Made by a program: the position numbers and the translations under genes. The notes below the pieces were generated by a model. It did not search any database. It saw only the letters and a list, made by a program, of their open reading frames with translations, and was not told the origin of the DNA. Below, piece after piece: positions 36 to 63,857 of a stretch of DNA of 64,000 nucleotides; positions within the stretch are counted from its first letter, which is position 1, and the number at the start of each line of letters is the position of its first letter. The stretch lies in contig OZ260663.1 in assembly GCA_965285935.1 (NCBI GenBank), positions 66,278,001-66,342,000 of the forward strand. Reading direction: 5' to 3'. Origin of the DNA: Ophelia neglecta (Eukaryota).

Positions 36-191
36 CTACGCAGGTCAAGCCATCTCCACTTTCTTCGAATCCATCAGGGCAAGAACACGTATAAGGTACT
101 CCATCAAAGGAACGAAGATTGTACACCTGGTCATTACAAGTAGCAAATGGATCGCACGTTGACAGGTTTAAAGCACATTCGTCTACTTTAT
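36..191 (-). CDS. Gene A exon 77: calcium-binding EGF-like domain
   Basis: Translates DKVDECALNLSTCDPFATCNDQVYNLRSFDGVPYTCSCPDGFEESGDGLTCV. It has six Cys in EGF spacing, a D-x-x-D-E-C start and a YTCSCPDGF motif, and is a symmetric phase 1-1 exon (ttcag acceptor, GTAAAT donor). Confidence 0.9.
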
Positions 192-3100
192 CTGAAGTTA
201 AAAAACAATTCAAACATTTTTTGTTACTGCTATTAAATTTATGTAGTAGGTAGCAGCGCAATGGCCGGTCTTATACTTTCTGCACCTCCTGATTGTTCCG
301 ACACACGTTTGCAATAAAAAAAATTTAAAACATTAGCGTTTATGCTTAATGGTACGAACATGATAGTGTAATGCCCAACGTACCTCCACAATCAAATATG
401 GTTCGATACAACGCCATATTGTTGCCTTCATTCACCTCAGTCACTGAGTTTCTGCAGTCGATTAAAACCCCAATATAAGGATGGGTCCAGCAGTATTTGG
501 CCGTGTCTTTTGTTAGTGGTATAATCAAATTGGAACCATTAAGTTGGATAACAACCGTAACTGCAGCCGGCAGTGGTTGCTGGAAAACCGACATTTGTTT
601 CAAGTAAATAACCTAGTGAAAACGCAGTTTAACTTTTACTGCACACTATGGCACGGGAACAGTAAGCGTACATTAACCTAAACTATCCGGTAATGCTTCG
701 AACGCAGTTAGATGTGACAGAATATTGCCCAAATTTATACTTCTTTGCACGTATCATTATACAATGTACATTGCCATACTGCGGTCTTAATTAATAAACT
801 ATCACGACATTCATTCGTTTCAATAATCATGTACCTCACCTGCAGCAAAAGCAGTTGTTGATTATCGTAATTTCCAGCTGGAAACAAAGCATCTATTCCG
901 GGATTGTAAAACTCATCTTCGGATATGAAAAAACAGAAATCGAAATGAACATCAGTTCCACTCTGACTGGGAAAGAAGTACCCCCCAGTGACCGTAGCAG
1001 CCACTTCCAAGACAAAATTAGTGGCGGTTGCAGGAACGATGATGTCTAGGTCTAAGTTAGTGATCTCAAACTTCAGTACTGTCAGATCAGTCATACCTGT
1101 AAAACAAAATATCGTAAATTCGACATCTCTTTCAGCTGATCGTTACTGAACGCCTGGGAGTTGTTAACATATAAGAGGCTTACTTGTACAGTGTAAACTG
1201 TCAAAGTTAAGATCCGACGCAACTGCATTGTTGTTTTGTTCATTAGACTCAACAACATCGTTCAATGGGTCAAATTCAGCAATCATCGATATCCTCCCAT
1301 CGAAGTTACAGAGAAACAAAAAGTCTTCAGGTGTTATGGAAATATTTCCCGAAGCTGCAATTAAAATAAACCGTGTGCGGGTGCACATGCTATATCTCAT
1401 AATGAAATATGTAGATAATGCAAGACGGAAGGATTAATTGTGTGTTTAGAAATACCGTATGCTGTTAGTACCTGTAATTGCGCAAGGACTATTGCAAGGA
1501 GATGAAACATCGACGGACAGAAGACTGCCTACGGGCACCTTCAACGGTCCAGCCGCCAATGAAACCTCATATAGATACGAATGGGCGCCTAAAAGAAAAA
1601 GCAAGTTAATACCCGACAGACAAGGCAACAACTTTAAACAATAATTGTCCATTAAATCAGTCCAAAAACATCCGAACAACTGCCACAGGATCACACGCAT
1701 TAATACATGAATCGCCAGTGGCAAAACAATAATCAACTTATAATTAAACTAATATAAAAAAAACATATAAAATTAATATTACTAGTAGAAAATCGAATAT
1801 TTTTCTATGAATTTCGATAACAAAGCGTGAATTTGATGCTTATTTGTCATGTTTGTGCTATTTCGCAACTATGGGTTCAATGTTAGTAAAGCATACCAGA
1901 ATCCTCAAGCAAATGCCCATTCACGCTGAAGTCTACAGTTCCAAATTCAAGTGTATTACCAGACAAAACGGTCAACTCGTTAGCTTCTAAGTCATTGTTA
2001 TCTGGACGTATGAAGATAAAACTTGTCTAAACAGTTCACCAAGAGCATGAAGTCATAGTCTTTTGTCAAGAATAGTGTCAATTGTATAGCTGGACAACTC
2101 GGAACAAAACAGTGTTACGACTGAATCAACCTAAACGAACTTGGAACTTAACAAGCGTTTCCTTACTTTTTAACATATGTCATTGAAAAATAAACTCACT
2201 TCCCAAGCAGTGTATGCTTATCTCCGTAATAAATATGTTATTATCGATGATGAGTTCTGTTACATTAGCCAGACTAGGGTGGTTAGCCTTTCTTATTTTT
2301 AATATTAAATCAGCTTTGTCGGGACCCAATGGCAGTGGCTGAAGATATGCATCACATGCACTAACAAGGTGAACAACTCCTGACAACCTGTTTGAAGTGG
2401 ACGAAAATAAATCAACATATTTGTGTCGTTGTCATTTGTTAAACGCAGGAAAAACAATGAAAGCTATGTGCTCCCTTTTCTGTGCTTACCCGTGGATGCG
2501 AATTTTTTCATTTGCTAATATGGTGTTTCTTAATGTATCATCTTCTCCCAAAGCAAACGACCATTCTGCAGGAGTCACATCGTGCTCTAAATGCATTCCC
2601 TTTCTTCGCACAAACAACTGTCCAGAAACACAGCAGATATACATAACAGTGAATATGTATTACACATAGCAATCTGATGAATCGTGATTATACATAGTTG
2701 GTTGTACCTTTATTTCGAACATGTTGTGTATGCCATCAGAAATCAGATCATCACCGAAGACATTCTCGACATCAAATGATAAAAGAATTGGGCCAGGGTT
2801 ATATTCATATGTCGTGGTAGAAACGTCCACGTCATTCAGTTGGAATACGTCTGCCAAAACCAAATTGAATACATGTATGTGTTTATTTTGCGATTTGGCT
2901 AATTGTGAATATATAACGGGGAATAAGGTCATGTTTACAAATAAAACACTTGTGTAACCCTACCATATTTGCATTGAACCGTAACAGGGATTGCATATCC
3001 ATTGTTGTATTCTGACAATTCTTCCACGCTGTTCATGTCATCAATAACCGCTAACAGGAACACAAGTCCACAAAAATCAGGTGCAACATATGCCGGTATA

Positions 3101-6100
3101 GTCAATTTTTCGACTAGTGAATATAACGTACGTTCTATCACAGTGTTCGTTATATCCGTAAGATCAAGGGCACTAAGCTGATCGTTTCCAGAAAATTCCA
3201 GACTTAAATCCATGGAATCAAACATAGCATTTTTTGATAGATAGAATTGAACGGTAAATGCACTGAGCTGAGCTTTTCCTGCCATTGTAATGGAAACCAC
3301 AAATGAGAAATGATGTTGCGATCCAATCGCCAGTGTTATACTGGTTGGGGACAAAATTAATTTTTTAGCAGAAAAGTCAACGAAATCAATGCTGCATTTA
3401 ATTATGTTTGATACATCCTGATAACGGATGTTATTCTCGTAGATCTTCTCCTTCGTAATAATATGTACACCTTTGTGTATTTCCATAAGCATATATTTAA
3501 GAGTACATGCACTGAGAGGGAGGCGGATTTTCATCCAACCTACGACATCAATTTTTTGTCCTACTTCGGCAGGACCCAACAAAGCCTTTGAAATGCTGTC
3601 TGATATATCAAAAATTGTGATCCTAGTGTCGAGGTCCAGGTCTAGTTTGTTGTCATCTGACAAATACACACATATGAAGAAATTACGTCTTCCATCTGCT
3701 GAGGCTGGTATGTTTTCTCCAAAATTCCAAAATGAGAAATGAACTTCAATTTCTACTTCGACGTCGCTGTAGATAATCGTAACTGGGTCCTTTGGAGCCA
3801 CCATTAAATCAGAAACTGCGAGGAAGTCTCCGTCACAAATCATTAGGTATTGGAAGGCTCTTATGTTGTCCCTTGTATCCGGGTCAACGGAGGTGATGTT
3901 TTTTAGATCCTCTAATTCAACAATAAGATACACGTAGCCACAATAAAATGCTAGGTCCGGATTGTCGGCAACATCTATTCTAAGATTTGCACCATTTATT
4001 GTTATTTCATACGGAGAAGATTGAGAAATACTGATTCCTCTCCTAAGTATAAATTTCTGTTCGGCACTTAACACTATAGGGATCATAGAGTCGTCGGGAG
4101 TTCGGGAGTTATCCAGACTGAGGTACAATTTGAACATCATGCTGTAATCACCAAGATCGGATGGAGATGCCGCAGGGATTGAACCTAGATCGGGTGATAC
4201 CTAACAGTTTAATATTTGGACTATCCCTTAAATGTTAAATCGACTACCTAAGCGCTTGCTAATTATAAATTTCTCATCTACAATGTGTTTGTTCTATGGA
4301 CCTACCACTTGATGTTTTTGTCATCCCTATCTTTAGTTGAAAGTCCACCCACTGATCCGCCTTCAGGTCGGTGGTTGCAGTGCCTTCGTCCTCCAGTCTG
4401 AAGCTACTGACGAACAGGTTTACTTGTTCTAGAACAGATTGGTTACATTTGTACCAAACAGACAGCAATGATTAAGTGATTGTATGAAACGAAAGTTTCA
4501 GCTTGGCAGGTTATATAACATAACTTTCGTTCTATATGGATGTTATCTATATTTACCTTCTTGACAGCGGATTCGATCTTTCAGTGAGAACGAGGCAATG
4601 TCGTTATCTATATATTGGGAGTTCAGTGGCTCGACGGGGACCAAAATGATGAACAATGTTGGCGTATGGCTCATTGCCTGGTTACACACATCCATTGAGG
4701 AAATGTCTATTACTCCTATTAAATATCATTCGATGAAATGTTATTAAATGCGGTTTCTTTGAAGCATTACATACTTTGTCAAGACTTTTTGTGTTTTGTT
4801 TACATAACGGTTAGATATGGGATAGAAAATTGTTTTAAGGGTAAATTCGAACCGGTTAATAGAGGTGTTTGAACTGTCTGTCTGGCTGGAACTTCATCAG
4901 TGAATACAAAGGGCGTTCCATCCATTTTGACAACTGCAGCGCTGTCACTTGCATCTAAATGGTCATCAACAGAGAAGGCAACCTTCATTTCGAAAAGTCC
5001 TGCTGGGATACTTGGAAATCTCTTGCCACCAACATTTACCACAGATGCTATAAAACTTAGTGTTATGGGCATCATTGGCCAAAATGTCTCCGGTTCAGAC
5101 ATTATTGTCACGTCTTGTAGCGCTAGTAAATCATCTAAAAAGAAAATTTTAAAAGTTTTATTATGGATTTGATCATAAAGTCATACCATAAGAAAAAAGC
5201 TTCCTATGTGGCATGAAATCCAATAAGGTTTTAGTATTATATGAATATATTAACCAGGGCAGCTAATGTGTATGAGTCTTTCCAGAGCATTGTTTTGTTC
5301 ATATATGTCAAATCCGGTGATGTAATCAGCCATTATCTCCACTAGCCTGAAACATAATAGCAAATGTTTATCATTCTAAGACGAATCTATCCAAAACAGT
5401 ACATGTGTAAGTCGAATGCACAATATGAAATATTTAAATCAAAATGGTAGAAATGACATTATTTTACCATATTTTGTCACAATATTTTACGCCCTTTGGA
5501 ATAGAGACAACATAGCCAACTATATATTCTTGGAAGACTGCTTCTCCCACGCCCGTGCCAGTAAGACCTTCCACTGGATTTATATTTAACCAGGCCAGTT
5601 CCATGTGAAAATCTGTAGGAAATACAAACAGCACAGATAAGTTGACTATTATGCAAAATTTGAAAATAAGATATAAAGAGCGAAAGTGTTTGCCCATGCC
5701 TTTGGTGTTATTTACGTGGCAGTTAGCCTATGTGACCGCGGATAGATACTTATTGACACAGAATGGATAGCATCATATCATCATGTCAAACATTAATCAT
5801 TTCATTTTGTTTTTATTGACTCTTTCTGGTACTAATGTCCATAAACTTTGACTCTTGCAAGTCATTTTTGATCCCGTTCCCATTAACTGGGTCTGATTTT
5901 AATTCTTAATGACTGATACCTCATATTAAGAGTGCTGTACTAGTTTGTGTTCGTTGTCTCAGTTTTCCGATTCAAACATTGTCACAAAATGGCAACCCAA
6001 AAAATAGGTCAACACTGTCTAAACCTTTAGTGTGACCTTCTAACTCAATTTGATAGCCTTCATCTGATTGTTTTCACTTACATGGTAAACCAAAATCAAG

Positions 6101-9100
6101 GTTGTGAAAATCGCTTAATATGTGGCTTTGTTTGGAAAAAGGTAGAATTTCCTAAAATAAAATGTATTACATCTATACCAGACGAGTCTTATTTCGTTAA
6201 ACAGCTATGAAATACAGGATTTGATCGAATATGTTAGCAAATAATCATGTTTTATAATTACCTTCCTCTGAAGTACCAAACTTGACATGTATCTGTATGT
6301 TATCGGGAAAGAGTGGTGTAGACAAAACAACAGTCCCAATAACAACTGCTTCAATAATAAAAGACACATTCAGGGTATCCCCTGACAACACTGTATCCGG
6401 AAGAGTCTCATCTACCAACCTAATGTCAACCCCATTGATGTCTACATAAAATGTTAAAGTAGTAGCACGAATAAGAATAAACATTAACCAGTCAATCGTA
6501 TTTAAGTCGCATTTTAACTTTCTACTTTCGCCTAATCGGTATGAATTTTATAACATCAATTTACCTGAACAACCTGTGACAACACCAGTCACAGCTGCAA
6601 CATTGTTGCTCTCGTCAACTTCAACCAGTTTTTGGAACCAGTTTACATAAACTGATACCGACACATTTTTATTACAGTGCTTTATCAGTTGATTCCGGTC
6701 AAACACCATATTGGGATCCGATAGTTCTATGTCAAGTCCGTTTATTGGCATTTCAACCAACTTAACTGCCTGAGATGCAGGTAGGTTATAAGTAATATCA
6801 CAGCCTTTGTCTGGAGGTGCAGCATCTATAAATGCATTGACACTACATTTTATAACTCAAATAGAATATTTAATCAATTTTAATCATAAATGATTATAAA
6901 CCAAACAAGAAATATAAATGCTTATCTAATAGAGTGTATGCAACCATAGATAGCATTGAGACGAACAAGTATTAACTATTATTTTACGACATTGGATATG
7001 AGTTTAGGCACCCGATATAAAGAACGCCAGGCCAAATTTCGGTAGATTCTTCGGATAAGTTGGCCACACTGATCCTGCCCAGCTGATATTCATGTTCATG
7101 GGCAGCGTAGGAGTTTTGGATGCGTTGAAAATAATTCCGGAATCCTTGGCATCCAAAAGGAACGATCTAATTAGCAGATCCACGTGAACTGTCGAATTGT
7201 TAATCAGATAAGATACAGACTATGTTAATTCCTTAACATAAAACATCATTTTACAATAACTTGCAATAATTCATTTATTTCCACTGTTGCCTTGCACGCA
7301 ATGCCGAGACCAGGCTCGTGTGAGTTTGTTTGAAAGATGTTTAATGTTTCTTAATCTTCTCAACTTACAATCAGGGCATTTAAGTTTGAATGCTACAATG
7401 CGCACGTTATTATCAGTGATGGTCCAGTTTAGTGATTCTGCTTGTTGGCTGTCTCCTTTTACCATTTCTAATCCCATGTAGGCGATCTTAGCACAATCGT
7501 TTGATCCGTCCACAGCAAAGTGCCCTGATATATTTATTTGCACTTTGTTGTCTGTAAGAGCATTATAAAACAGGAAATCATTTTAGGAAACTGTATGATA
7601 TTATATATTTGAATATCCTATGTTATATTAGGGCAATGCTCAGGTTGCTACATCAGTATAAAAAACGGGAGTGGATACATACTTTGCGAAAATACACTTA
7701 TATGGTAGGTATGTTTCTGACCTGAAGCTACGGAGAAATCTGTTTGTAAAGCATCTGCAGGGGCTATAAATGTGTTATCATCGTAGTCGCCCAAAACTTC
7801 AGAAGTCCAAAATGCGTCAATTTCTGATGGATTAACGGTTCCAATTTCTTGTTGGTCTTTGGTAAAAGTCTTAAATAGAATAAGAACATTATCTTAACCA
7901 TCAGCACTATATCTTAATAATTCTTAATTAGTCAACTCATTTGTCAAAACCTCAATAAAACAAACCTTTATTTTGAAGTAAAAGTGCACCGGTAAAGAAA
8001 TGGAGCCGTGTGATGCTACAATAGGGCAAGAATCGGCAATGCACGTTACTTCTGCAGCGAACTTTATCAGCGCGGTCTCTCCGGATTGTATCCCGGCGGA
8101 AGGTAATATGATCTCCAAAGAAGATATCTCAAATGCGTCTGCCAATGAACAAATCGTATTTTATCATTCACAATTGAAATAAACATGTATTATTAATATG
8201 TCGCTATTGTGTTTTAACGCATGGTGCCATGAAAAGTATTTCATTAAAAGGCAGATTGTAATGTTTACCGTCTTGGCAGACAACATAGACAGGAGTGGCG
8301 TGAACATTGTTCACTTCATTTGTTTCTTTTATTATATTTGTTGAGTCCAGTTGTACAATGACGTATGTGTGTCCACAGAACCGTTGCTTCAAATTGTTTG
8401 GAATGTCCAGCGTCTCAGTTATTGTGCCACCAATTCCCAGGATTACCATGGAAACATCATGAGGGATAATGATGTCCAACTCATCGATTTCTTCATCAAC
8501 TGACAGCCAAAGCAAGAACTCAGAGGAATCTAGGAATAGATTTATCAAAATAATATTAATCAACTCATGCATGTCTCGATGAGATAAGTGTTCCTTAATT
8601 TAAACAAAACTGTGGAATGACATATGCGATCAAGGTATCTGTTTAATTTTAACAATCTATTATAAACGTTAATAGAACGTGCCTATGACTTCAGACGTAA
8701 CGACAGTTACGTCCAAGGTAAAGTCTGTACTTGCACCAAGATTCAATGGTCCAGCAAAGAAAAAGTCACCAACTAACATATCTGTGCTTTCTGAAATAAT
8801 TAAAAAGCATATCATCTAAACGGTGAAAGTGTACATCATCTTTCCAGGAATAAAAAGCATCTGCTTGATTTATTAGGATATTTTGTAATAGAGTTTCTCA
8901 TTATCAGTACATATACGTTATCATTTCATATACTCGCACATATAATTTATATAGTTTCCAGATAAGCTCCTCAATTGTCTTTTAGGTATATTGTTACAAA
9001 AATACCATGCTATGATACACATAACACGTTACTAAACATGTTTACCATGCTATGATACACATAACACGTTACGAAACATGTTTTCCATACCTGTACAAAT

Positions 9101-12100
9101 AACATGTAATGGTAAAGCCCAGAAGTTATTGTCCGTTAAATTGTCTTTTACACTGGGCTGCGTAACCAAAGCTCCTACGACGATGAAATGAGATTCTGAA
9201 CATCGGTCGCTAGGTATATACACATCCATCTTTACGTCACGCAGCATTTGACTTTGGGACATTGGCAAGCCATTTCTCAAAATAATGTCTGTTTCTGAAG
9301 AATAAAACGAGAGTGGATACCCGGCAGACAAAACCTAATCATCGATCAAGAATGGTCCATTAAATATATCCAAAATCATCAGGAACCAGCAGCCACAGCA
9401 CCACACACGTCATTAAATCAATCTCCAGAACCCAAACAATTAAACATGTAATAAAATAAAACTTTCGGAAAAACTGAATAATGTCACTTACACTAAGAAG
9501 TCAACAGTAAATGATGACCCGTGGAAGAATAAGTTATTATCGTCGCAACATCCATCTTTTGATGACTTAAAAAACTCAAACATCATCATAACACAATCGT
9601 TAAGCAAATACAATAATATGCAAAAAAAATGTATACCAGATGACAGGTGAACATCGACAACAATGTCCTGCGATTGTTGCCAAACATTATCCTCAGATAC
9701 CACTGCTATCAAACTAACACCAGAAGATCCAGAGCTGGGGGGTATGTCCTGATTGCCAGTGTTCAGTATTGATATATCTGTTGTCAGCGTGGTAGTATTG
9801 TTCTGCCATACGGTGTTTTCAGAATTGATATTAACTGCTGTTATAGCTAAAACGTCTACGATGAAAAGAAGAAGAGTGCCGTGAACCCAGTGATCGTGTG
9901 TGTATTATATATTCTTTTGCTAAAAATGCAATGTAGTTTAGACCTTTAAGCCTAAAAAATTATTTTTGCTTACCTCCGGGGCAATCTATATAAACCTGTG
10001 TAGCTTTTAAGTTATTCTCCTTTGAAGATTCTACGATGGCGTCAACGAATCTAACCATTATGATGATATAGGATGTTCCACATAGGTAGCTCCGTATATA
10101 AACACCTGATATTAAGAAAAATAACATCACCTGTAAGTAAAGATGAAACTCGTGGAAGATGTATGTTATCTGCCGTTGCTGATAGTTTTGATCAAACCTT
10201 GTAAATCCTCGATGACTATTGGGGAGCCTGGTTGAATACCACGACGAAGGACTGCACTCGTGTAGGAGTTCATGACATAATCCAAGTCGATGTCGTCAGC
10301 AGAAAACACAGAATCACGTGACCAAAGCATGGACACATGGAACGGAGATATGAAGGGACCAGTATTCATTGGCTGGATTGATGTTCCTTGAATGTCGAGT
10401 GTGAATGCAAATTTGTTCACTTCTGGGGAAATGATATCACCACCAAGCATACGAAAGTCTGTCACTTGAAGATCAATCCCGGCATCTAATCATAAAATAC
10501 CTTTTGTCAGGATAAATATTTGGTGAGCGTATTCACGCATATATAACGAATAATTATAAATGATTTTTAAAACGAACTTTACTTTTAGTACCCGAATCAT
10601 ACATTGAAATCCCGACTGTGTTATTAGTTCATGTCTGTAATTTAGCTGGTGATTTCAGCTTCGAAAGAGTTATCACATATAGCATGATCAGCAACTAACC
10701 TGAAACACACTGGTATTGCCACGTTATGACATTGTTTGAGTTCACACTGTCAGTTTCAGATGACAAACTGGACCCAAGAGTCAGCGTCAATTTGAAAGTA
10801 TTATCGGTTACTTGGTGACATAAAATGGCTGGCACCTGTGTAAACGTAATGGACACTAATAATTCGAGTCTGGTGTTTATATTTTACTTTATCAAACAAA
10901 TTTGTTGTGTGGATAGTTTTTCATCGGACAAACTTTATCAATACGACTATTAGCAAGCGACGATATTCTTAATCAGTTTCCATTACGACTAAGGTTAAAA
11001 TGTTCAACTGGAAAAAAGAGTACCATGAAGCTGAAGTGGAAGGCTCATGATACATTTGGAACAAATTGTGGCAGGCTGATCCTAGAACAATGGTGTTCTT
11101 TTATCTGCTTTATATATATATATATATTTTATTATATATATATATATATATACAGTAAAATTGTCTGGCGGATGAATGAAACATATTACCGTTATAAGTC
11201 CCTGGAATTGTATTTCTTTCCATTGTCCATTGTACGAGAAACCCTCGCCTACGCCGGGGGAAATTGAGCTCTCTGGTCTCGAATCCCAGTCCTTGTCAAT
11301 AACTGCCACAACATGTTCTGACACCGCGTCTGACGTTGGTAAAAATGTCAAAGAAAGAACATAGTTCTCCAATGCGGGTTGAACTTGGCACAACTCTCTT
11401 AAACAGGAAATGTTGACGGCAACAGTGAAACTCATTTCCTTATCTGCAATCACTTGGTTATCCGCTGTCCAAAATCGTATGTCTGATATGCCGAACAGAT
11501 CTAAAGGAAACGATATATCGTCTAGAATAACACACATATCTGTTTAAGCATTATTATTTACCAAAAGGGCTTAACCAATATTAGTATTAGAATACGCTGA
11601 AATTACAATATCTTCAACTGATATCATTATTGAATATCAGACTGGATGTAGTTTTGGTGTAAGTATTACCTTCTGAACATGCGAGATAAGAATCCCTTAA
11701 TGCCACCTGGTCCAATCTACGTGGTCCAAGAAGATCATGGTTGGCATCGATGACGACGATAAAGTATACCTTGCCACAAAATTGTTGATCATCTGATATG
11801 TCCAGTCCCACTTGCCTACTAAGGTCTATTTGTTTTGCCGTGCTAATTTCTAGATACAAGGAGATACTTAATTTGCAACATTCAATATTGTTCACGACTC
11901 TTCTAAACGAATATATATAACAAAAAAAGATTAGTAACTTATATGTTCCGATAACATTTACATCGACATTTTTCCAATAATATTTGGAGACGTCGTGCTA
12001 TTTTCAAAGCCTATTACCCTGGAGTAGAAATATGTCCTTAAACAAGAAGCTATCCGTGATACTAAAATGAGGATTGTGGGAGATATAAATCCTGACGACG

Positions 12101-18100: not shown

Positions 18101-21100
18101 GTGGAAGTGACTGATGTAATACAATTAAGGAGTTTTCATCATAAGGCATCAATAAGGAATGTACCTTGAAAGCAAAGTTATCATCTTCAGTCGACGCAAG
18201 AATTGTGATAGGCTCCACATTGTACACCTGGGCGGAAAATGACACAGAAAGCGGAACCCCCTCTCCGATAAGCGTCCCCATCTCAGATTGAAAATTAACG
18301 TGGAAAACATCTACAATAGCCAAATAAAATTGGCAGGTTACTTTTCATTTATAAAGCGATATACACGTTTAGTTAACGATGATTAGACAACATAGTAATT
18401 ATATTGCTATCACCTTTGACACATTTAATAAGTGTCATTTCCTCAGCAAGATTATTGTTCTCATTGGTTTCAATAACAATGTTGCCAGGATCAACAACCA
18501 CAAGCAGATAAATCACACCACACAAATGTTTCCATGTTGTTTCCGTTAATGTCTGAAAGGAAAAGCAGGAGGTAAAGTACGTTATGAAAAATAAAGATAT
18601 CTAAAGATATTTGTTACTTTTCTATTTACGTCTATTTACCACTGTGATTGTTGCAGTCCATACGATGCCGTCCCCAACAGCAGCCTTGGAAGAGGTGTCC
18701 ACCGTGTGAAAACTTGGCAGGTCGAAACTTTCATTAAACATTGAGTCTCTGGAGGCATAAAACTGCAACCCTGGCTCTTCCATGGCATCTATGTCGGATT
18801 CTACCGAATACTATACAGCAATAAAAACGAGTCCAAGTTAACTAAATATGCACCTGTGGTTGCCAACTGTTTTATTGAGTTAAAATTGCTATTATATAAT
18901 GAATTAATGTTTGGTTTAGCTTTTAAGAGTTTGCTGGTTTTTAAAAATAATCGAACTTAACCTCCACTTTTAAATTGTATTCAATTTCCATATCTGTTCC
19001 GGACATTACATACGAGTTGAAGCTGAACTCATTCACATTCAAATCTCTTGGTTCTGAAATACATTTAAGTACAGAAAATTAATCACTTTCTGAAAACTCA
19101 AAAAACTCAAAGTCAAGTATTCGTTTTGAATATGAATTTTATAGCATACCGCTACATGCAACATTGATAATTCTTATTTTGTCGTTCATCTTGTAGGAAT
19201 CCACCATCCCCATAGTAATTCCAGCTCCTATATCCACCTCTAAAAACCACTCTCTGCGAAGTAAAAGTCAATGGAATGTCTTATAAAATGGAAACCTTTA
19301 TTCAACGAAATACTTCAATAATTACTGAACCTCAAGGATACATAAGCGAACTATCATATTGTGGTCTTAGTTATTGTGTATATCATTCATATTTTCCTCT
19401 TTGATGTGCTTACTGAGAGTTAATCTTTCCACAAGCCGTTGGTCCAACAGGTAAAATGACCTTCACTCCACTAAAGGTCGTCTTCTCCCCTGCTCGGAGA
19501 CCATCGGTAATCTTCGGAAGGTCCCCGTCCGAAAACAAAAAGTTAGTCAGGGGCAACTCCGTATTATCATCAAGGACTATCTGCAGTAATGCAAATCAGT
19601 GGGTAAGCAAGTCAACCTTAAGGAATGATTTTATTATTATGGTACTAGTATCAACAGCTGGCAGTTTTTATTAGAAAATTACTATTATTATAGCTTTGTT
19701 AATGTCAGTCAGTCTGCCATAGAGTGTTAATTTTCAATTCATGCATACAACCTTTTGGTTTCAAATCGCACGGAATGTAAAATTGAACCTACTCTGAAGT
19801 CAAAAAAGGAAGCTCCATTGTGTGACTTTGGGATGTCGTAGCCCTCGGGGTGTGAGTTGATTAGCGTCACAGAGAATTCCAACTCCGCTTCCTCTATTTG
19901 TATTATATTGGTAGTCGAAATTGTTAAGTCACTGAGCTCAAATAAATCTAAATAAAGAAAGTTTAGCTTTAATTCGGTGAGGAATGCGGTCTTTGAATAT
20001 TAGCATTGCATTGTCTGTGTTGATATTTAAAATGCTAAATATGCTTGATATTCATTTACAATGAAAAAATCGATATAAGAGTGTTAACAATCAAAAGTTA
20101 ACTTTAATTTACCCGTTGGACATTTGATAAGAATCCTCTTCATGACGTAGTTGTTGTCAGGGATAGGGTCTTTCGTATGGTAAGATCGTAATTTTTCGAT
20201 AATATTTGTTGTAGCCTCTGAGATACGTATAGAAGGAAATATTAAGGATGTTATGTAAAGTGGAGCAAGGAATACAAATATTTGACTAGGATACGTTGTA
20301 TATTTCTCTCTATATTATATCTATTATTACTTATTATTCGGGCACCAACGTTTTACTCAATGTCAAACATACTTTATATCTCGCCACAACGCACCTGGAG
20401 TTTTAAAATTGTTCAGGTCAAATAGAACTACCACCAGATACACAGAACCGCATGATAACCCTCCCTCTGCACTTGTGATCAAAAGATCATTGGAATTGAA
20501 ACTGTATGCCACAGTCTCGTCGGATATCTCACTCCACATCTCAGATGAGTGGATTGGGTGTGTATATGCTGAAACGTACGCACATATACATCAAGTGGAT
20601 TATGAGCGAACAACGAATTTGAAAAAAACAGACGTGCCCAATTTCTGTTTTGTTACCGATTGAAGTTAACTGGCATGTGTCCTCAAGTGAACACAATATA
20701 CCATTCTTGACCGATTTGAACCAGACGCCACGCTTTACGCAAGATTTACAGGCATAATATTTAGCTGTATTTAATCATATGCAATAAGGATATGTCTAGT
20801 AATTAATTAGTTCTTCCATGGGCCATCAGGTGAAAATAAACTTGTTTTCGTTTAATCACCAGGACCAATTTACAATGTTGCCTGTTATATGGCATTGAAG
20901 AGACCCATAACATTATCATACTGGCTAATTATCATTCACAAACAAAGAAGAAAGTATCTGTCTTACAAAGCATTTGTTCATAGTTGATCCCATCCCTGGA
21001 GAGGAGGAATTTGTATCTATAGTTTTGGATCCCATCAGAGAAAGGAGTAATGTGGTCTGTCGTGCCTGCGTGGACCTTGGCGTTAAACTCATACTGAACA

Positions 21101-24100
21101 GTTTCGTCTAAACGAATGAAGTCGATTTCCTCAAGCGATGTATCCAGCAGTTTGAAATTTACGGCTTCTAATTCCACAAATGCTAATAATAGAATTGGTT
21201 TTATATAGATCCATTTTCTAAACATTCTATTCATTATACCAGATCACGTTTGTCTTGCAATGATATAAACTTGACGAAAATTACTAATTAAATGTCGGCA
21301 AATCTCAAAAGTTATTACATATTTCACACATAGAGCATTTAATTTTAAAAAAGGGCTTATCTCAGGTGCCGATATTGATAATTATAAAGAGATCCGCAAA
21401 TCGGAAGTTTCTTAATCGTTGCCATTGCGTTAGTCGCATTAGACCCTTATAGTCATACAACAAGTGAGATTTTCTTACAGTCATTACAGACGAGTTTGAG
21501 TTTCTTTGGCTCAGCATTGGCGACTTGGGAATATGATGACGTTGAATAGCCGAGAGACTGCAGATGTGCTGAAGGACTTATAGAGATCACCACACTACGA
21601 CTGGAGCTGGAGGACAAAACACTGCACTCGGCAAGTGACAATGTCAGCTCACCTGAAATGTTTAAGGTCAAATCGTACAATGAACCCGCAGGACGAATGA
21701 CACTTTATACATATTATATGATAATGTTATAATAATGCTTTTATCTATTAATGAACACATTTAATGTATAAACTGCTACAGGAAGGATTTAGTGATAGGA
21801 TGTCACAGTAGATTCACCTGATCCGCTGATAAACACATGTTCTCCAGAGGGTATGGGCTGTCTTTTGATGCTTAAGTCGTACAAGCTGATGTTAAGGGCG
21901 TCAACTGAAGTTCCCATTCCATCATCCAAGAAAATGTGTACGTCAAAATTATCAGACCCATTCTGAAAGGCGTCTGCATACTTCCCCTGGAATAAATTCC
22001 ACATCAATGAAAAAAATGATGGCTTGTTTATTTGTAAGGCCACTACGCTTTGTTCTAGATGTTTATACAACGCTTCACAAAACTAAAGCTTTTCTTCTCG
22101 GATGCAAATAGGTCATTTGGATTAACAAACTTTACCTCATGGGTGACCTTGGCACTAAACTGTATTTTGTAAATGAAACCGGACCAGAATACGGTATCAA
22201 AGGAAAAGGTCAGTAGTTGAGGCTTCACTGAAAATGTATGACGGATTTTAGCAACCATATGGGGAGAAATGAAAATAATTTATTAAAATGAACAGGATCT
22301 TTAGACCAATAAAAGAAGTATTTTCTCAACATACAAGTTAGTTGGCAGACGAGGTTGATATCGATGGAGGCAGGTGTTCCAGGAGAGAAACCGGAGCCGG
22401 TCCTAACGTCTGCCGTCACAGCCAGCAGCCGAGGTTGTCCTTCGGCCAGTAGACCAATACAGGCATCTTTGGACAAGGCACTCGAGGGCAGCGTAGCTGG
22501 ATCGCAATCCAACATACATTTGATAACATAACTTATAATGGCGGAATGTCACTGGCAAATAGAGCAAATCGCCACGATGTTTAATAAGGACGTAGAATCG
22601 TAGTTGAAATAATTGCCGCTATAATGTTTTGTGACTGTAGGTGTTCATCGGCATTAAAGAACTTCTCCAAGATAATGGGAATCTATCTTAAATTTATTGA
22701 TGCCTTGAAATCGCCATTAAACCGAACTTCTTGAGTATCAATTTCTTATCCTGTTGTATTTCATGAAAAAGGTACCATATAGGCCCTATTGAAAATGTTA
22801 AATTACAGCATGAATAGACAAGAGATGTAAACACGCTTGTTTGTTAGTATACATAATTGCGTTATAATTATAGTGGTGCGAGCATATTAATGTCATACCG
22901 TATATCGCAATTGTCACAAGAGCTCCGCCATCTAGACCAGAGAACGTTTTCTGCGCATCACTTTCGTCTACTTCTACCGCGAGTTGAATATCACTAGGGT
23001 CGACTGTGTCATCTGCCGACATATACACCTCCAGGGCAAAATCCGGGTCTTCCGCACTGCCCCCTATCAGCGCGGACGTGTGGGCATTCATCACCTCTAT
23101 CTTTGGTTATCAAATAATATAAATTGTTTAGACCACCTTCAATCAAGATATTCGTGGTTTCAGTGCATGAGCATGTAAGATGTTTATGTGCTAAAATAAT
23201 ATTGATTAAAATGGATGACTGGGACTGCCAAGACAACGAACAGAATATGAAGTTTACCTGGAGGTGCATCACATACGTGGACTGAACATATATATTCGAT
23301 GGAACCCTTTCTTGGGTTCCACTCCCAAATCCTGACTTCACTATAAGGAAAAATGAGCAACGAATTGACAAAAGCAAGACTGTAATTTAATGTCTGCCTA
23401 GTGTAACATTTACACATTTACCATGTATCTTTGGCCATTTTATCCAGATCATCAACTATCAAATTTGTTAGGATCGTTAGAACCATGTGCACATTATATG
23501 TTAGTTATATTTATCTTTAAATGGAGAGAAATACACAAATCACAATTCTGCCATGTGTTATCCTATATGTCATGGTTAACTGTGCTTTTGTCAATAGTAA
23601 CGTGACGACGGCCCCAATTAAAAAACACACTGTGAGCAGCCCATGTGCTTCCCTGAACAATTTATATGGTATCGTCTCACGTGTTGGAGAAGGAGCAGGC
23701 GGGCAGTTCAATCCGATCACACTGGACGCCGGGATAGCTGAAGCAAGAACCGCAACATTGTTACTTTCGTCCACTTCTGGTATACGGTTGTCTCGGTCGA
23801 CTATAATACCAATGAACACATCCTCTCCACAGTAACGTTCGAACCCACTTGGAGGAAGGACGAGTCCGCCTGCAAAACCAAAGTCTTAATTTAATATTTA
23901 GCATATTCGCAAGTTCTACTTACATTGATGCCTATTGATCTCAATGCTTAGCTTGACATAAAATTATGTGATATCAGAGAAGATTTTATATTTCCTGGCC
24001 TGGTTCAACTGGCGTTATAAAACCACTTTCCCTCTAGTCATTTCATTACAATAATTGTGGCCCACAAATGATAATAAACCTGGTTCCTCTACAGAGATGT

Positions 24101-27100
24101 CCATCGTTTCTGTACTTGACGCGGGGACAGATCTGGCCAGTTCATTTCTCTGGCACTGTGTCAGGTACACCGCTATTTCCAAGTCAGTGTTAGGGTCAAT
24201 CTGATTATCATCAGTGATATAGAAATGGACTGAAGTGTGGGGCCATTCCTGATGGGGGAGTGACATATATCCTGTAGTCACGTCGATTGAAGCTGAGTAG
24301 CTTGAAGGTGTATCCACGATCAGTCCTGTGATACCGGTGAAAGCCCCAGCAGCTATGTCGATTGTACCTGAAATCCGCATCCAAACTATCTTAGTGAAAA
24401 ATGGATGTCGTCAAAACGATCGAGTGATTTATAAAATGGAAGTCGTCAAAGAGATCGAGTGATTTATAGGCACTGACACCAAAAATGTGGACTTTTAACT
24501 ACCATATTTTCTGCATCTCGATTGAAGGAGGTCATCTTAGATAAATAAAATATGAAAACTGTTATATATCTACCAGACAAAGAGCAGTCCATAACCACCT
24601 CCTGTGTCAACCAGTCATTGACAACAAAGTCGTCAGTTGGGTCCAACTCAAGTCGGACGTATCTTAAGTGGTCGTTGCATAATACCGCTTCCAGCTCTAC
24701 TTTAACTCTGAAGGACACAGTTGCGGATGCCACGCTGCAGACAAAAACCAGCTATTCTGTACATTTATATAACAAGAACAAACTGTAACTATGAACCAAT
24801 TTTATTAAGCAAACTAAGCAATGGAAAGTTGATAAACCTGATATCTTCTTGAGTTCCTTGACCACCGTCAATCGCCTCAAACGCACCAATCACATTTAAT
24901 TGTACTTCATCTCCGTCTCTTGTTCTGTTCGTGTCCATTAAAACTATGAAGCCAAAGTTGTTGTTTCCCGCCGTTTTACCACTGCAGTCTGCCGCAGTAC
25001 AGGAAACTCGGGCAATGAAAGTAAAAGTCACATCGGATCCAGCCATCCATACTGGTTCAGGCGATAAGAGTTGGAAATCATTCAAAGCCATCGCATCTAA
25101 ACACAATGAACACTAGAATAAACCTGACGTGCAATGTGTTTATCTATAGTTTTGGTGTGCCAGTCAACCTGATTTAAAGTGTTTCTAACATTTATTGAAA
25201 TAATCATAGAATAAATTGTACTATCAACAGTGAAGGACTAGATACAATCACCAATTTTGGATTACATCGATATATGTAAATAATATGCTAGGATGCATGC
25301 CTTGATTTAAAGTTTTATTTCCTAACTTATATATTGAGGGGCAATGTTAACGTATGATCTTTAGGTTAAGATATACACCGTTGTTGTGGCAGGCAAGAAT
25401 AACTTGGTCCATAGCAATGTTGTTATATTCGTATAATTCCTCTATGACATCGTTGCTGTCAATGAAGAGGATTGCGTACACATGTCCGCACAAGGACGAG
25501 TTGGATGGGATGGGTATAGGCGTGCTGGACATAGTCATGGATCCATCTACATCTATCGTAATAGTCACTCCTGAAAATTAATCAAAATTAGTCGCCAGCA
25601 CGATAAAGTAAAACTAGATGACAAATCAGCCAGATGACTACCATTACTAATGTATTTACTTAATATGAATGTCACGTGGCATTTTTAATTGACACTATGA
25701 GGGCAAAGAATTTAAGAAGAACTTGAATATTAAGTTAAATACCAGAATCTATATCCTTTTCGTCGTAGATATTGTTGTCAGACCACAATAAGCTTGTCGT
25801 GAAAGATGCAGGGTCGACAGAGCCCACTGTCACCGTCCCTCCGAGAGTCACAGTTGGCACCGTAACTCCGTCTGCGATGAGCCGGTTTTCGGAGACAGTA
25901 AAGCCACTTACACTCAGATCGTTGACTGAATTTAGATAATAAGAAGATGTACAATTATAAAGTCTCTATTTTCAGTAAAAACTAACCTTAATCAGGGGGT
26001 TAAATTTGTACCTTATATATTTCTTTGCCTAAAAAGTCATTATTTATTCCATCATATAAGTGGCTCTGGTTAGGATTGGAAGAAATTTATTGCGCATGTA
26101 AATTGAAACAATAAGCAACGTCACAATGATGCATTACATAGCCGATCCTTCAGGTGGTTGGGATTTAGGCATTAAATAAGTGTGATAAATTAATTTTCGT
26201 CAACACGAAGAGTTACAAATAAATTTCTTTATTTAGCCTATGCACTTGGTTGATATTTTAATATATATTGGTATCCCTATCTTCTAATTTAAATTTAAAA
26301 AAAAATGATTAACCTGGTGCAGTGTCCGCAACCGTCACTTTAACAGCTACGTAGTTATTATGGAATATTTCATCAACCTCATCTGCCGCTGGCGCCACCT
26401 TAAGTATAATGTGAGTGAAACCAACATTGGAGGTGAAAATGTCGTCTGGAACATGGATGCTGACGTCATGCAGTTCAACACTTGCCCCTGGAGGAATCGC
26501 TGACATTGGGCTGTCCCTTGAGGCTGTATAATCTACCTCTCCTACACGTGTCAGCTCTAGACTTTCACCTGAAAAATAAATATGCCTTTGGAATGATCAT
26601 AATCTGGAACTTGGCTTAACTCAGAAAGGGGTGTCGAAACAAATTCAGCTGAATGAAAGGCAACGTGAATAGTTTCCCTGCAGAAAAAACCAATACGCTG
26701 ATAAGATTACAACTGATTAACAATCCGAATTTATGAAATAAAGTGAAAGGAAGAAAAGGTACGTTCGGAAATGAGGTTAACTATAGGTTCACTGACCTTG
26801 ACCCAACTGTGGAGAGTCACTAAGATAAAGGATGAGGCGGAATGCTGCCTGCCCTCCTTTATATGTCTGGTTATGCATATTGAAAACAATTGCGTTGACG
26901 GTGAAGTCAAAAGACGTATTTGGGTACACGATTGGCTTGAAAGGTCCCAGATATATAGTCATGTCAGAAATTGACCATTTGTCTACGAAAAGAGCAATAG
27001 AGAGTTAGAAGTGTTAATAAAATCAACCTTTTATGCTAGTTTCTTTCAATTCGTTTAAGAGAAAATACCCAAAAGTTGATACCTCGAATAAGTATACATT

Positions 27101-29039
27101 AAGTTATATACCTGTTGGACATATAACAGTCACTGGAATAATCAATTGGTTATTCCATTCATTGCGTTCAGGTATTTCCCCAAAACCTGAAAAGGATTAC
27201 TCAATTGAATTTAACAGGTTTATGATTCGATCAAAGTATTAAAATTGCTTATATAACTTGAAGTATATTTATATTAAAGTGCGTGTACCAGTTCCGTGAT
27301 CAATGCTGACTCCAAGATAGACTCGTCCACAGTAAAGGTGTGTCATGAGATGGCTGTGTACGTCCGGGATACCGAGATCTGAACCCCCAAGGTAGACACT
27401 CCCGGATGAAGAAAAACGTTGGTTCAAGTTTGAAAATGACCTCGGCAATTTGGTTACCTAAAATGTTAATATTATTGTCCAGTACATATGCATTCACAAA
27501 ATATATAATTATGTAGGTCACCTTCACAGTCACCAAGTTGTGCATGTTTGATAAATAGCAATTGCTCTATGCTGAAATACAAAATAAGTTCTTAAATTAC
27601 AATATTCACCTCAAGGTCAAAAGAGGGTTCGATGACGTCATCAATGCTCAGGAACAATTTGACTTTGTATGTCTGGGTGAAGAGATCAGGATCAGGATCA
27701 AGGACGAAAGAGCCAATGATGTCTACCCTCAAGGCAAGGATGAGATGGGATGACTCCCCAGAGTAAAGGACCTGGTCCATGATGTGGAACTGGAGTATGC
27801 TCAAATCAACGTGATCTAGATTGAAAAAAAGTGTATGCTATCGTCTGCTTTAGGGCAATAACACTTTGTTTTGTTTTGTGGAAAATGGGATAAGATACTC
27901 AGCAAACAATTCCAGTCATTAAATAGGGATATAACCAGTATATCGGCTACACATAATGTCAGAAGTCAGATGTCGTTTAGATATATGCATATAATTACAA
28001 TGTTTGGCGTTCAGATTAATTTGGCCAGCAACTCCTTCTTTTATTATTAGAAGTGAAATAACTAATACTCACTGCTTGTACATTCCAAGAGGTCGGAGAT
28101 ATACTGACAATGATAATTATTCTCATTATCAATTTCATTGTAGGCGGCGTATATTCCTTTCGTCACATGGACACAAACATATTTCAGATTTGCACAATTA
28201 GCTGCTGAAACTTTTACATTAGAGTGACCCTCGATAGTCAAAGTCTCGGACGATTCTGAGGCCAAACCTACGAGAGAAAAAAACGATATATGAATAATCA
28301 TGTATAAAAATGAGAATAGTACAAAATAAAGAAAACATTTAAAGATCTAATTTCCCAATAAATGATATGCCTCTCGTCAATAGTATGTCAAACGTGAATC
28401 ATGTTTCGACTTTAATTTTCTTCGTTCATAAATGGTCAAGTACAATACTGTTTGTACGTATAACACATTGGTTTACTGCTTAGATGTAATCAAATTTTTG
28501 ACGTTAATATTATGACCTTTAAGTAGAAGGTCACTCATGCCACTCTTTTTGAATGACATCCAAGCGTCTGCGATTCCGAGACTATCAACTTCTCCTGCCG
28601 AGGAGAGGTCAACGTCTGTCAGCTGCAGTGTGACCTCATAGTTATCGAAGTCCCCGGCACTGGCCAAAACGTCATTTCCGGAAGGCGCTGTGTTCACAAA
28701 TGACACTCTGCATGAAACGGCCGTGTTAACATCTTGGTACAGTTTCGCTCCTGATAGTTGCAAACTGAATCCTGTCACTTGAAGGTCTGAAAGAAATGAC
28801 AATTTTTAAATCACCGTGATTACAAATATTGTTCCAAAATGTTTATAAAAGCTTTGTTGAAGACAAACTATTATCATGGTACTCCTTTGTTGCTGACGGA
28901 ATTAAAAGGCAATTTATATGAATCATGTGCTGATAAAAAGCCAGTCGAGTGTCAACTGTTCTACATTTCTACCTGGTTGGCCGTAGGATCTCTCCCAGAG
29001 TAGCAGAATTATAAACGACACTAACTGCGATGTCATCAT
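36..29039 (-). CDS. Gene A: giant secreted or cell-surface protein with signal peptide, 33 tandem CARDB-like Cys-stabilised beta-sandwich domains and a Ca-binding EGF domain; 77 coding exons in window, >=4878 aa, 3' end beyond the left edge
   Basis: Manual splice tracing gives an open frame with consistent phases (sum 14635 nt). Exons 5'->3': 29039-28973, 28786-28517, 28267-28073, 27815-27610, 27457-27289, 27186-27112, 26982-26797, 26568-26314, 25925-25743, 25570-25379, 25096-24838, 24734-24574, 24367-24080, 23869-23681, 23340-23258, 23100-22899, 22496-22335, 22227-22136, 21986-21818, 21652-21479, 21182-20967, 20568-20395, 20217-20113, 19947-19793, 19580-19414, 19253-19150, 19053-18962, 18810-18640, 18552-18414, 18310-18165, 17980-17846, 17752-17584, 17452-17327, 17215-17057, 16957-16559, 16450-16268, 16092-15775, 15502-15368, 15245-14988, 14826-14620, 14365-14181, 14088-13923, 13722-13651, 13293-13142, 12713-12509, 12382-12305, 12215-12018, 11849-11670, 11500-11190, 10835-10700, 10485-10198, 10105-9974, 9855-9637, 9294-9091, 8790-8683, 8529-8269, 8138-7966, 7869-7722, 7551-7369, 7188-7012, 6825-6565, 6441-6262, 5612-5468, 5346-5255, 5134-4853, 4715-4557, 4428-4306, 4184-2964, 2850-2708, 2617-2490, 2387-2200, 2001-1897, 1588-1472, 1354-1184, 1096-840, 579(or 612)-384, 191-36. 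Recurrent motifs include CGHVYAILFIDSNDVIEELYEYNN, CGVIYLLVVVDPGNIVIETNENNN and CGLVFLLAVIDDMNSVEELSEYNN. The CARDB (PF07705) resemblance is by eye, not by HMM. Confidence 0.88.
2964..4184 (-). CDS. Gene A exon 68: 1221-nt exon encoding most of domains 28-30
   Basis: Matches the 401-aa ORF 2935..4140. Donor is G|GTAGGG at 2963. The phase-1 acceptor ctag at 4185 is required by the upstream donor; a second TAG at 4201 is out of phase. Confidence 0.85.
9003..9082. repeat. Intronic 40-bp tandem duplication (2 copies)
   Basis: TACCATGCTATGATACACATAACACGTTAC(T/G)AAACATGTT twice with one mismatch, just inside the donor at 9090. Confidence 0.9.
11111..11152. repeat. Interrupted (TA)n microsatellite
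   Basis: Two TA runs separated by TTTT, in a gene A intron. Confidence 0.9.
24398..24467. repeat. Intronic 35-bp tandem duplication (2 copies)
   Basis: AAAATGGATGTCGTCAAAACGATCGAGTGATTTAT followed by AAAATGGAAGTCGTCAAAGAGATCGAGTGATTTAT. Confidence 0.85.
28973..29039 (-). CDS. Gene A exon 1: signal peptide
   Basis: Translates MMTSQLVSFIILLLWERSYGQP: hydrophobic core and a plausible SYG|Q cleavage site. The phase-1 donor G|GTAGAA joins in frame to (D)LQVTGFSLQLSGAKLYQD. Too short for the ORF track. Confidence 0.85.
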
Positions 29040-30980: not shown

Positions 30981-31056
30981 ATGGATAAAATGATGCGATC
31001 TACAATTATATTAATTCTGATGAGCATGAACTTGGATATAACAGCTGCCACTGAAG
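30981..31056 (+). CDS. Gene B exon 1: signal peptide
   Basis: Translates MDKMMRSTIILILMSMNLDITAATE. The phase-1 donor G|GTGCGT joins in frame to VDVVLSGFEYRLSGAKLYQD through a TAGCAG tandem acceptor. Confidence 0.8.
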
Positions 31057-63841: not shown

Positions 63842-63857
63842 GGGGGGGGGGGGGGGG
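63842..63857. repeat. Poly-G homopolymer (16 nt)
   Basis: Visible directly. Similar tracts occur at 56647-56660 (G) and 54942-54953 (C). Confidence 0.85.

Follow-up and report, generated by a model that had tools for sequence, protein, structure and literature searches.

The membrane proteins closest in architecture to those considered here are MUC4 and the mucin4-like proteins of corals and Actinia, for which the accessible parts of the sources give a signal peptide, NIDO-AMOP-VWD, EGF domains, one transmembrane (TM) segment and a cytoplasmic tail (PMC5354666, PMC9080433, PMC4890752). Mucin4-like skeletal matrix proteins of corals combine TSP1, NIDO, AMOP and VWD as well as EGF domains (PMC4890752); the N-terminal additions named for mucin4-like proteins in the accessible text are CUB, ZP, FN3 and TSP1, and CARDB arrays are not among them. 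Mesh of the Drosophila smooth septate junction is, in the part of the source available, a single-pass adhesion protein with NIDO, AMOP and vWD (10.1101/2020.11.10.376210); it also has an Ig-like E-set and a sushi domain and fits a gap of 15-20 nm. The CARDB domain (PF07705; PF1109, 3idu/2kl6; Hymenobacter, Gloeothece) is an Ig-like sandwich with LSxD and D..E..E.NN motifs and is regarded as prokaryotic. Two domain types in an ordered pattern, together with block duplication, are known from titin's super-repeats in the A-band (7 or 11 FnIII/Ig domains), which according to the accessible part of the source occur in many copies matched to the filament (PMC3859903).

The window analysed here is a stretch of 64,000 nucleotides of Ophelia neglecta (contig OZ260663.1). 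It probably contains the first halves of two paralogs, A and B, predicted to be single-pass membrane proteins, in which 33 CARDB-like Ig-fold domains likely build a long rod, stapled by disulfides and probably stiffened by metal, for spacing or adhesion. Gene A has these 33 domains on the minus strand from 28786 to 384, in 75 predicted exons encoding 4,821 aa with no stop; gene B also has 33, in 77 exons (4,976 aa). The domains of A and B align 1:1 and colinearly with 30.1% identity. Gene A runs past the window to about -18377, and in gene B the end of D33 (~66180) and the gene end (~86572) both lie outside it. The predicted full products comprise about 7,300-7,500 residues each. The features of the window are as follows.

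36..191, minus strand: first EGF exon of gene A (Pfam cEGF)
385..5255, minus strand: gene A, D27-D33
5256..9974, minus strand: gene A, D22-D26, additional stretch whose origin is mixed; D24 with Cys hairpin, D26 an orphan alpha domain
9975..15368, minus strand: gene A, D16-D21, where D1-D6 recur as a second copy, on a basis including introns shared by D2/D17 and D6/D21; D21~D6 weaker
15369..16268, minus strand: gene A, D15, 4-Cys beta domain, relative of D1/D16
16269..21479, minus strand: gene A, D9-D14 (a b a b a a), with D28-D33 as their sisters
21480..28786, minus strand: gene A, D1-D8 (b a b a b a b b)
28973..29039, minus strand: first coding exon of gene A, signal-peptide-like by eye, ending at a phase-1 intron
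29040..30980, no strand: spacer of 1.94 kb between the divergent start codons of A and B
30981..31057, plus strand: first coding exon of gene B, signal-peptide-like
31288..64000, plus strand: gene B, D1 to mid-D31

The gene models are ab initio and hand-curated predictions with uncertain exon ends in B1, B4, B5, B27, A32 and A33. Draft exons of gene B judged false (33542, 33680, 36184, 36538, 39684, 43883, 63947) were removed, as were three exons that looked spurious, one of them in A and the others in B. The spacer is a candidate shared promoter, and the head-to-head genes are likely co-expressed. Searches of the animal's own genome with D28-29, D16 and PF07705, whose results are lower bounds, found no third gene of this type. 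The domains in the window have no similarity to each other at the DNA level, and recent duplication or mis-assembly was therefore rejected.

Pfam PF07705 matched three exons of the window at 22.9-23.5 bits (cut-off 22.7) and whole homologs at 26-89 bits. A single exon of 1,221 nt (4184-2964) holds part of D28 through D30, and its product matches open frames of ~400 aa in other assemblies; alone it scored 19.5 bits, below the cut-off. In an AlphaFold model of D28-30 (pLDDT 89.9, pTM 0.72) the alpha and beta subtypes have the same strand order. In the structural comparison the alpha subtype came closest to 3idu, a CARDB domain with two metals (Z 8.6, rmsd 3.5, 107 aligned), in a tie within 1 Z with unrelated Ig-like folds (Spo0M, Z 8.3). 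The alpha profile matched 3idu, 2kl6 and 2kut among solved structures at E 0.015-0.03, on the acidic loop, and scored 89-568 bits on ten of ten prokaryotic CARDB repeat proteins. For the model of the beta domain D29 (pLDDT 91.6), Z reached at most 7.0, against Ig-like folds of a generic kind, and no CARDB entry was among the 50 matches listed. Foldseek with the three-domain model returned only integrin-leg and other multi-Ig matches (TM about 0.2), and the homolog P0010 matched solved structures via its EGF domains only. To judge from the entry title and the position of the match, the D..E..E.NN loop corresponds to the metal site of 3idu; alpha domains likely bind divalent cations through this loop, and beta domains are without the full motif. 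Matches of the alpha profile to Pizza6 were set aside as a repeat artefact. CARDB clusters in the Atlas, at 0.87-0.89, are a lead only.

With the prokaryotic domains the animal ones have in common the Ig-like sandwich, LSxD and the D..E..E.NN loop. The animal domains are 125-175 aa long against ~110 in prokaryotes, carry a conserved disulfide and are exon modules; they are position-specific, whereas the prokaryotic ones are near-interchangeable, and half of them (beta) lost the acidic motif. ExxExNN was found in 40 of 69 alpha domains and in none of 61 beta domains. The two profiles align over 137 columns (probability 98%), which shows that the subtypes are homologous. The succession of alpha and beta domains, previously read by eye, was reproduced at all 33 positions by unsupervised spectral clustering of all-versus-all scores. 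Domain borders fall at phase-1 introns at 29 of 32 junctions in A and 31 of 32 in B. Among the features on which the earlier note had based its domain pairs, the extra Cys hairpin of D5, D20 and D24 is indeed restricted to them (12/12 sequences there, 0/118 elsewhere), and D9~D28 and D12~D31 are both reciprocal best profile matches. The 4-Cys pattern of D1 and D16 is not unique to them, as D15 also has four Cys in 4/4 sequences. The shortness of alpha domains D4, D19 and D23 is mostly a trait of gene A (125/126/123 aa; B 152/134/138; amphioxus 141/137/142). The pairing of D7 with D26 was wrong: the partner of D7 is D27 (reciprocal best, z 3.3).

A titin-like super-repeat formed by block duplication had been proposed, with off-diagonals expected at +15, +19 and +4. 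Permutations were run with the subtype class kept fixed and hub effects removed. The +15 diagonal (D1-5 versus D16-20) was found and survives this treatment, with 0/5000 permutations of A+B reaching the observed value. At +19, the A+B counts were 4/5000 for D2-14 and 0/5000 for D6-14. A scan of A+B over all offsets, which corrects for offsets picked by eye, gave +15 D1-5 as the best run (P=0.007) and +19 D9-14 as the second (P=0.02). The expected +19 series (D2-14 versus D21-33) holds for D9-14~D28-33, but D21-23 and D26 do not match D2-4 and D7. Non-window proteins alone gave 9/5000 at +15 and 0/5000 for +19 D9-14, and eight of 12 reciprocal-best profile pairs lie on +15 or +19 (7/10000 permutations); the non-window, profile and tree sets omit domains below 95 aa (O21, N15, M19, N29) and single-exon homologs. 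The sister domains of D1-6 are D16-21 and that of D7 is D27; D8 has none. Identity between sisters is only 20-33%, close to the level of alpha pairs that are not sisters (e.g., D17/D21, 26-30%), so the sister signal is a statistical one. Support for D10~D29 is weak, z being -0.4 to 0.5 on the window data and 2.2 for the non-window proteins. Quick trees gave the joins {12,31}, {1,16,29}, {B5,20,24}, {13,32}, {9,28 without A9} and {A2,17} with SH-aLRT of 87, 90, 93, 83, 81 and 90, respectively; A5, M5, A9, B2 and M2 were placed away from their expected sisters, and overall support was low.

Introns supply evidence on the sister pairs that does not depend on protein scores. Both introns are common to D2 and D17, in A as well as in B, and likewise to D13 and D32; one is shared by D11/B30, one by D7/D8/A27 and, within a residue, one by D6/D21. 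These results bear on a reading without any block duplication, in which only an alpha/beta dyad was multiplied and the likeness of apparent sisters comes from slow evolution or convergence. The slow alpha domains D11, D17, D23 and D30 do have high mutual scores at any offset, and many tree forks are open, which speaks for that reading. The signal nevertheless persists after class and hub removal and in the all-offset scan, recurs in non-window proteins and is matched by shared introns; dyad-only expansion is largely refuted, and we regard it as very improbable. Block duplication before the A/B split is supported, and it is older still than claimed, because annelid and amphioxus proteins keep the same order. 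The likeness to titin extends to two domain types in an ordered pattern that arose by block duplication; two unequal extracellular copies with no known periodic partner and two significant diagonals, but no periodic series, set A and B apart from it.

The +4 diagonal (D17-20 versus D21-24) did not reach significance in any set (331/5000 in A+B, 435/5000 in A, 2033/5000 in B, 2170/5000 in non-window proteins). It had been the basis for a second copy of the form [1,2-5,2-5,6-14], with D21-24 arising by tandem doubling of D17-20. The alpha/beta pattern fits such a doubling, as do the D19-D23 score, which is high in B, and an AU test in which the clade D2+D17+D21 is not rejected (p 0.484; the test has little power). 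The doubling of D2-5 is otherwise unsupported save for the Cys hairpin and the link of D24 to D5/D20 (17/10000). The best profile matches point elsewhere, D21 to D6, D22 to D29 and D23 to D11; D21 is without either D2/D17 intron and has a D6-type intron. Tandem doubling is held to be quite improbable. Permutation counts for D21-23 were 3928/10000 against D2-4, 2809/10000 against D17-19 and 510/10000 against D9-11; D23 is closest to D11/30. Of the earlier formula [1-15][1,2-5,2-5,6-14], the two ends are right and the middle lacks support. By sequence comparison, a weakly resolved arrangement, [1-14][15][1-6][22-26 mosaic][7, no 8, 9-14], appears to fit better; in the mosaic, equally weakly resolved, 22-23 would resemble 10-11/29-30, 24-25 would resemble 5-6, and 26 would be an orphan.

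The same domain order was found in Owenia (D21-33), in P0010 (D11-33) and in amphioxus (D2-29 without D8), which suggests that the array likely predates the protostome-deuterostome split. The best match was at the domain's own position for 12 of 13 Owenia domains clearly by HMM (13/13 by alignment score) and for 20 of 23 in P0010. In amphioxus, where positions were assigned by order and score and the D7 row was taken from P0081, as P0013 is without part of D7, 18 of 32 domains are best at the expected position; most misses go to the sister or to a slow-evolving alpha domain. The homologs are partial models annotated as uncharacterized (Owenia CAH1772454.1; Branchiostoma KAI8495792.1, XP_019641725.1, XP_078689460.1, C3YQ22). 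No full-length homolog turned up in the searched size range of 3,185-5,000 aa, and the alignment search returned two amphioxus proteins only. No description of the family was found in the openly accessible literature searched; the accessible text of PMC10475850 cites 3IDU as a test structure only.

Each of the 33 positions is recognisable across annelid, amphioxus and the source animal, and an order kept in this way suggests functions tied to position. By analogy with titin, whose A-band repeats match the thick filament, the order could be a functional super-repeat or molecular ruler in which a fixed length and register would let rods of A and B, or of facing cells, match up one domain to one domain and so determine membrane-to-membrane or cuticle spacing. 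Both paralogs keep 33 domains despite 30% identity, annelid and amphioxus keep the order, the divergent pair is 1.94 kb apart, and amphioxus also has two paralogs. The latter, however, group with each other (99.9/100) instead of one joining A and the other B, the amphioxus models start at D2 and are without D1 and D8, and there are two copies only, of unequal make-up; a ruler is considered unlikely. Its boldest form is also rather unlikely: an ancient bilaterian giant-receptor family in which co-expressed A and B rods would pair in register as a Ca2+-dependent ruler or link of ~150-200 nm between membranes. If true, it would be a counterpart of giant cadherin links with another fold, using the prokaryote-type CARDB domain as a position-coded 33-domain rod.

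The array had been thought to end in EGF. An EGF exon at 191-36 does adjoin D33, but it is followed by a MUC4/Mesh-like anchor of ~2,500 aa. Beyond the array both genes are predicted to encode EGF-TSP1-NIDO-(AMOP)-VWD-EGF-TSP1-TM, the order in gene A including an EGF array and a tail. Pfam identified NIDO, VWD, TSP_1 and EGF_CA on the downstream exons: NIDO on a single exon of either gene (A and B, 31 and 30 bits against a cut-off of 25), and both halves of VWD in A and B at E 1.5e-4 to 2.6e-3, each single exon below the cut-off. AMOP had no Pfam match on the split single exons; D..P..WCC...C..Y...RP, which we take to be an AMOP-like motif, lies between NIDO and VWD in A and B. Each protein has one strong TM segment near the C-terminus (hydropathy maximum 2.88 in A, 3.46 in B), directly preceded by basic RxKR/RRRR sites. 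Owenia P0007 continues from D33 into the same EGF-TSP1-EGF stretch. No single homolog covers the array through the TM segment, so past TSP1 the case for continuity is made by reading frame, phase and the parallel between A and B.

A and B are thus predicted to be MUC4/Mesh-like type I membrane proteins with a folded rod in place of the mucin repeat. Unlike MUC4, they have no PTS tandem repeat (S+T+P 21%), their N-terminal region consists of folded domains, and 33 CARDB-like domains with about 25 EGF-like exons bring them to ~7,400 aa. In place of the Ig-like E-set and sushi domains of Mesh they have EGF/TSP1 arrays, and if extended they would be about ten times longer. GDPH, a MUC4-like feature, was found in B only; coral forms also share TSP1 before NIDO.

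Amphioxus has no mineral skeleton. Its possession of the family, and the lack of GDPH in A, count against a product that is shed or secreted as a scaffold of an organic matrix (tube, cuticle, skeleton) and whose acidic rod would bind Ca2+ or mineral after GDPH or furin-like release. The array is acidic (D+E 13% versus K+R 5.5-6%), GDPH in B and the basic sites before the TM segment in both would permit release, and coral mucin4-like proteins are placed in skeletal matrix by the accessible part of PMC4890752. The scaffold is a possible but fairly unlikely function; it is compatible with the membrane rod and not its exclusive alternative.

For the membrane rod, the history probably ran from a CARDB-type domain through an exon module to an alpha/beta array, of which a block of ~14-15 domains would have been duplicated once, before the protostome/deuterostome split. 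A few domains would then have been gained or lost, with D22-26 affected in one copy and D8 in the second, the array afterwards being frozen, and whole-gene duplication would have given A and B. The product is probably an epithelial surface protein, MUC4/Mesh-like, whose folded rod takes the place of the O-glycosylated mucin repeat and likely keeps the tip well away from the cell surface, serving for spacing or as an adhesion stalk. Block duplication is ordinary in repeat proteins; the protein itself is unusual. A and B would rank among the larger animal membrane proteins, are split or unnamed in public annotation, would extend the MUC4/Mesh architecture by replacing the mucin repeat with a folded rod, and bear on the entry of CARDB domains into animals.

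All 13 indels listed from other sequencing runs fall in introns (exons make up 48% of the stretch; P 2e-4). Of the 40 variants listed, out of 509, 31 are exonic, 17 non-synonymous and 14 synonymous, which indicates no more than moderate constraint on single residues.

The window, G000:C5:66278001-66342000, sits in a 762-Mb genome. Only one long open frame (421 codons) occurs in it, and this near-absence is as expected of animal genes with many introns. When 30 kb were added on either side, matching open frames were found on opposite strands. A small exon finder was trained on these frames and its output was curated by comparing the two genes, A and B. The resulting exon models are predictions:

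Gene A: signal-like exon 29039-28973 to about -18377 (window coordinates), minus strand, predicted model
Gene B: 30981 to about 86572 (window coordinates), plus strand, predicted model

The two start codons are 1.94 kb apart. Variants from three DNA runs (one sample according to their record) served as a check on the models. Predicted exons make up 48% of the stretch, yet 13 of 13 indels among those listed lie in predicted introns. Among the 40 substitutions listed of 509, 31 are exonic (14 synonymous, 17 non-synonymous, no stops); 469 substitutions and 25 indels fall beyond the listing. A dispersed short repeat (9301-9456) in an intron of gene A reaches a depth in the thousands in the DNA runs; positions 1593-1748 are 70% identical to it, and similar pieces occur past both window ends. 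Simple low-complexity repeats are found in introns at 11106-11159, 44009-44067 and 61261-61325.

Upstream of the first EGF, A and B each contain 33 domains of 123-174 aa (D1-D33 in array order), which align one to one between the genes at 30.1% identity. Of the 32 domain junctions in each gene, 29 in A and 31 in B are marked by a phase-1 intron. An earlier note, made by a model from the sequence alone, had assigned the domains by eye to two subtypes, alpha and beta; unsupervised clustering reproduced this string at 33 of 33 positions. The cysteine hairpin ascribed to D5, D20 and D24 was present in 12 of 12 sequences there and 0 of 118 elsewhere, and the markers joining D9 with D28 and D12 with D31 hold. 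The four-cysteine pattern occurs in D1 and D16 as claimed, but is not exclusive to them, D15 being included, and the shortness of certain alpha domains stands for gene A but is mainly a trait of that gene. Nearly all domains have a cysteine pair; D3 lacks one in three of three sequences.

From these features an internal block duplication had been proposed, with sister domains 15, 19 and 4 positions apart. Class-preserving permutations (n=5000) were run after removal of class and hub effects. With A and B, 0 of 5000 permutations reached the observed value for the +15 diagonal (D1-5) or for the +19 diagonal (D6-14), and in a scan of all offsets these were the top two runs, with P of 0.007 for the first and 0.02 for the second. 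For the +4 diagonal, 331 of 5000 permutations reached the observed value. Homologs from other animals, taken alone, supported +15 (9/5000) and +19 for D9-14 (0/5000), and gave no support to +4 (2170/5000) or to +19 for D2-5 (1493/5000). Amphioxus alone supported +15 (5/5000); +19 was not significant in the few pairs available there (272-282 of 5000).

A profile-profile comparison with homologous proteins added to A and B gave the reciprocal best pairs 1-16, 2-17, 3-18, 4-19, 6-21, 7-27, 9-28, 11-23, 12-31, 13-32, 20-24 and 26-33. Eight of the 12 lie on +15 or +19, which 7 of 10000 permutations reach. The proposed pairing of D7 with D26 is replaced here by D7 with D27. Shared introns agree with the sister pairs: D2/D17 and D13/D32 share two each, and D11/B30, D7/D8/A27 and D6/D21 one each (letters denote the gene). 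D21 has neither of the D2/D17 introns; an AU test did not reject the proposed clade of D2, D17 and D21. The match of D21-23 to D9-11 is borderline (510/10000 permutations). Quick trees supported several sister groups, at SH-aLRT of just 81-93 and with some rows misplaced. The observation in the earlier note is real, and partly corrected. Read most simply, a block of 14-15 domains was duplicated once. On this reading the second copy gained D22-26 from mixed sources, and D8 either was added to the first copy or survived only there.

Searches returned homologs in Branchiostoma and Owenia fusiformis (CAH1772454.1) and a 3,469-aa protein. The Owenia protein contains D21-33 followed by EGF-TSP1-EGF, and the 3,469-aa homolog D11-33 followed by EGFs. 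In amphioxus, one protein has D2-7 and D9-19, and others have D15-29. The amphioxus models begin with a signal peptide and then D2, and in B. belcheri as in B. floridae D7 adjoins D9. When only A and B served as references, the best match was at the expected position for 13/13 Owenia domains, 20/23 of the 3,469-aa homolog and 18/32 of amphioxus. A tree on D22-33 grouped A with Owenia and B with the 3,469-aa homolog (100/100), and the two amphioxus paralogs together. Given these groupings and the same domain order in annelid and amphioxus, the internal duplication is likely older than the annelid-chordate split; the A/B split is also old. D28-D30 of A lie in a single 1,221-nt exon (2964-4184), where B has several introns. 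In other assemblies, twelve open frames (300-450 aa) match this exon, so A-type genes likely occur in many more species. Searches of freely accessible articles listed no description of this protein family. New results are the pair of paralogs, the membrane anchor and a duplication map that has been tested; the growth mechanism is ordinary, the protein unusual and, in those articles, undescribed.

After D33 both genes are predicted to continue with EGF, TSP1, NIDO, an AMOP-like motif, VWD, a PKD-like domain (a weak match, in B) and about 20 further EGF-like exons, and to end with TSP1, a basic site resembling a cleavage site, a single TM segment and a tail. The motif between NIDO and VWD, which has no Pfam match, is presumed to be AMOP-like. 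Across this part A and B share 39% identity (911/2359). The predicted architecture is of the MUC4/Mesh type; where MUC4 has a mucin repeat, A and B have a folded domain array. The MUC4 VWD carries a GDPH site (PMC5354666). GDPH is kept in the VWD of B (L005:9821-9988) and absent from that of A (L003:4619-4795), both in stretches outside the window. This autocleavage motif, present in B only, may reflect a division of labour between the paralogs.

The array probably forms a disulfide-stapled, cation-stiffened rod on an EGF stalk; with each domain estimated at about 4-4.5 nm, the rod would be about 130-150 nm long if extended. It would project from an epithelial surface as a spacer, glycocalyx or adhesion element, and the protein might be shed. 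The order fixed across phyla suggests position-specific contacts. A ruler of the titin type (titin: PMC3859903) is argued against by the two unequal copies and by amphioxus lacking D1 and D8.

Single exons pass the Pfam CARDB model narrowly and whole homologs clearly. An AlphaFold model of D28-30 (pLDDT 89.9, pTM 0.72) consists of Ig-like sandwiches with identical strand order in alpha and beta. For its alpha domain the top structural match is 3idu, a di-metal CARDB domain (Z 8.6), on a par with other Ig-like folds; the alpha profile matches 3idu and two other entries at the acidic loop. By profile, beta is homologous to alpha (137 columns, 98%); ExxExNN occurs in 40/69 alpha and 0/61 beta domains. 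Two further giant genes with canonical bacterial-like CARDB repeats in long open frames (580-2,272 aa) were observed on other contigs of the genome:

L009-L010, G000:C1:~96.62-96.64 Mb: giant CARDB-repeat gene, YD/RHS-like repeats after CARDB
L011-L012, G000:C7:~55.13-55.15 Mb: giant CARDB-repeat gene

Either could possibly be the source of the array's CARDB domain. The C1 gene is taken to resemble teneurin-related giant proteins. Between its coding frames lie retroelement-like frames (L010:1541-5223) with, by eye, reverse transcriptase/RNase H and a tyrosine recombinase, presumably DIRS-like.
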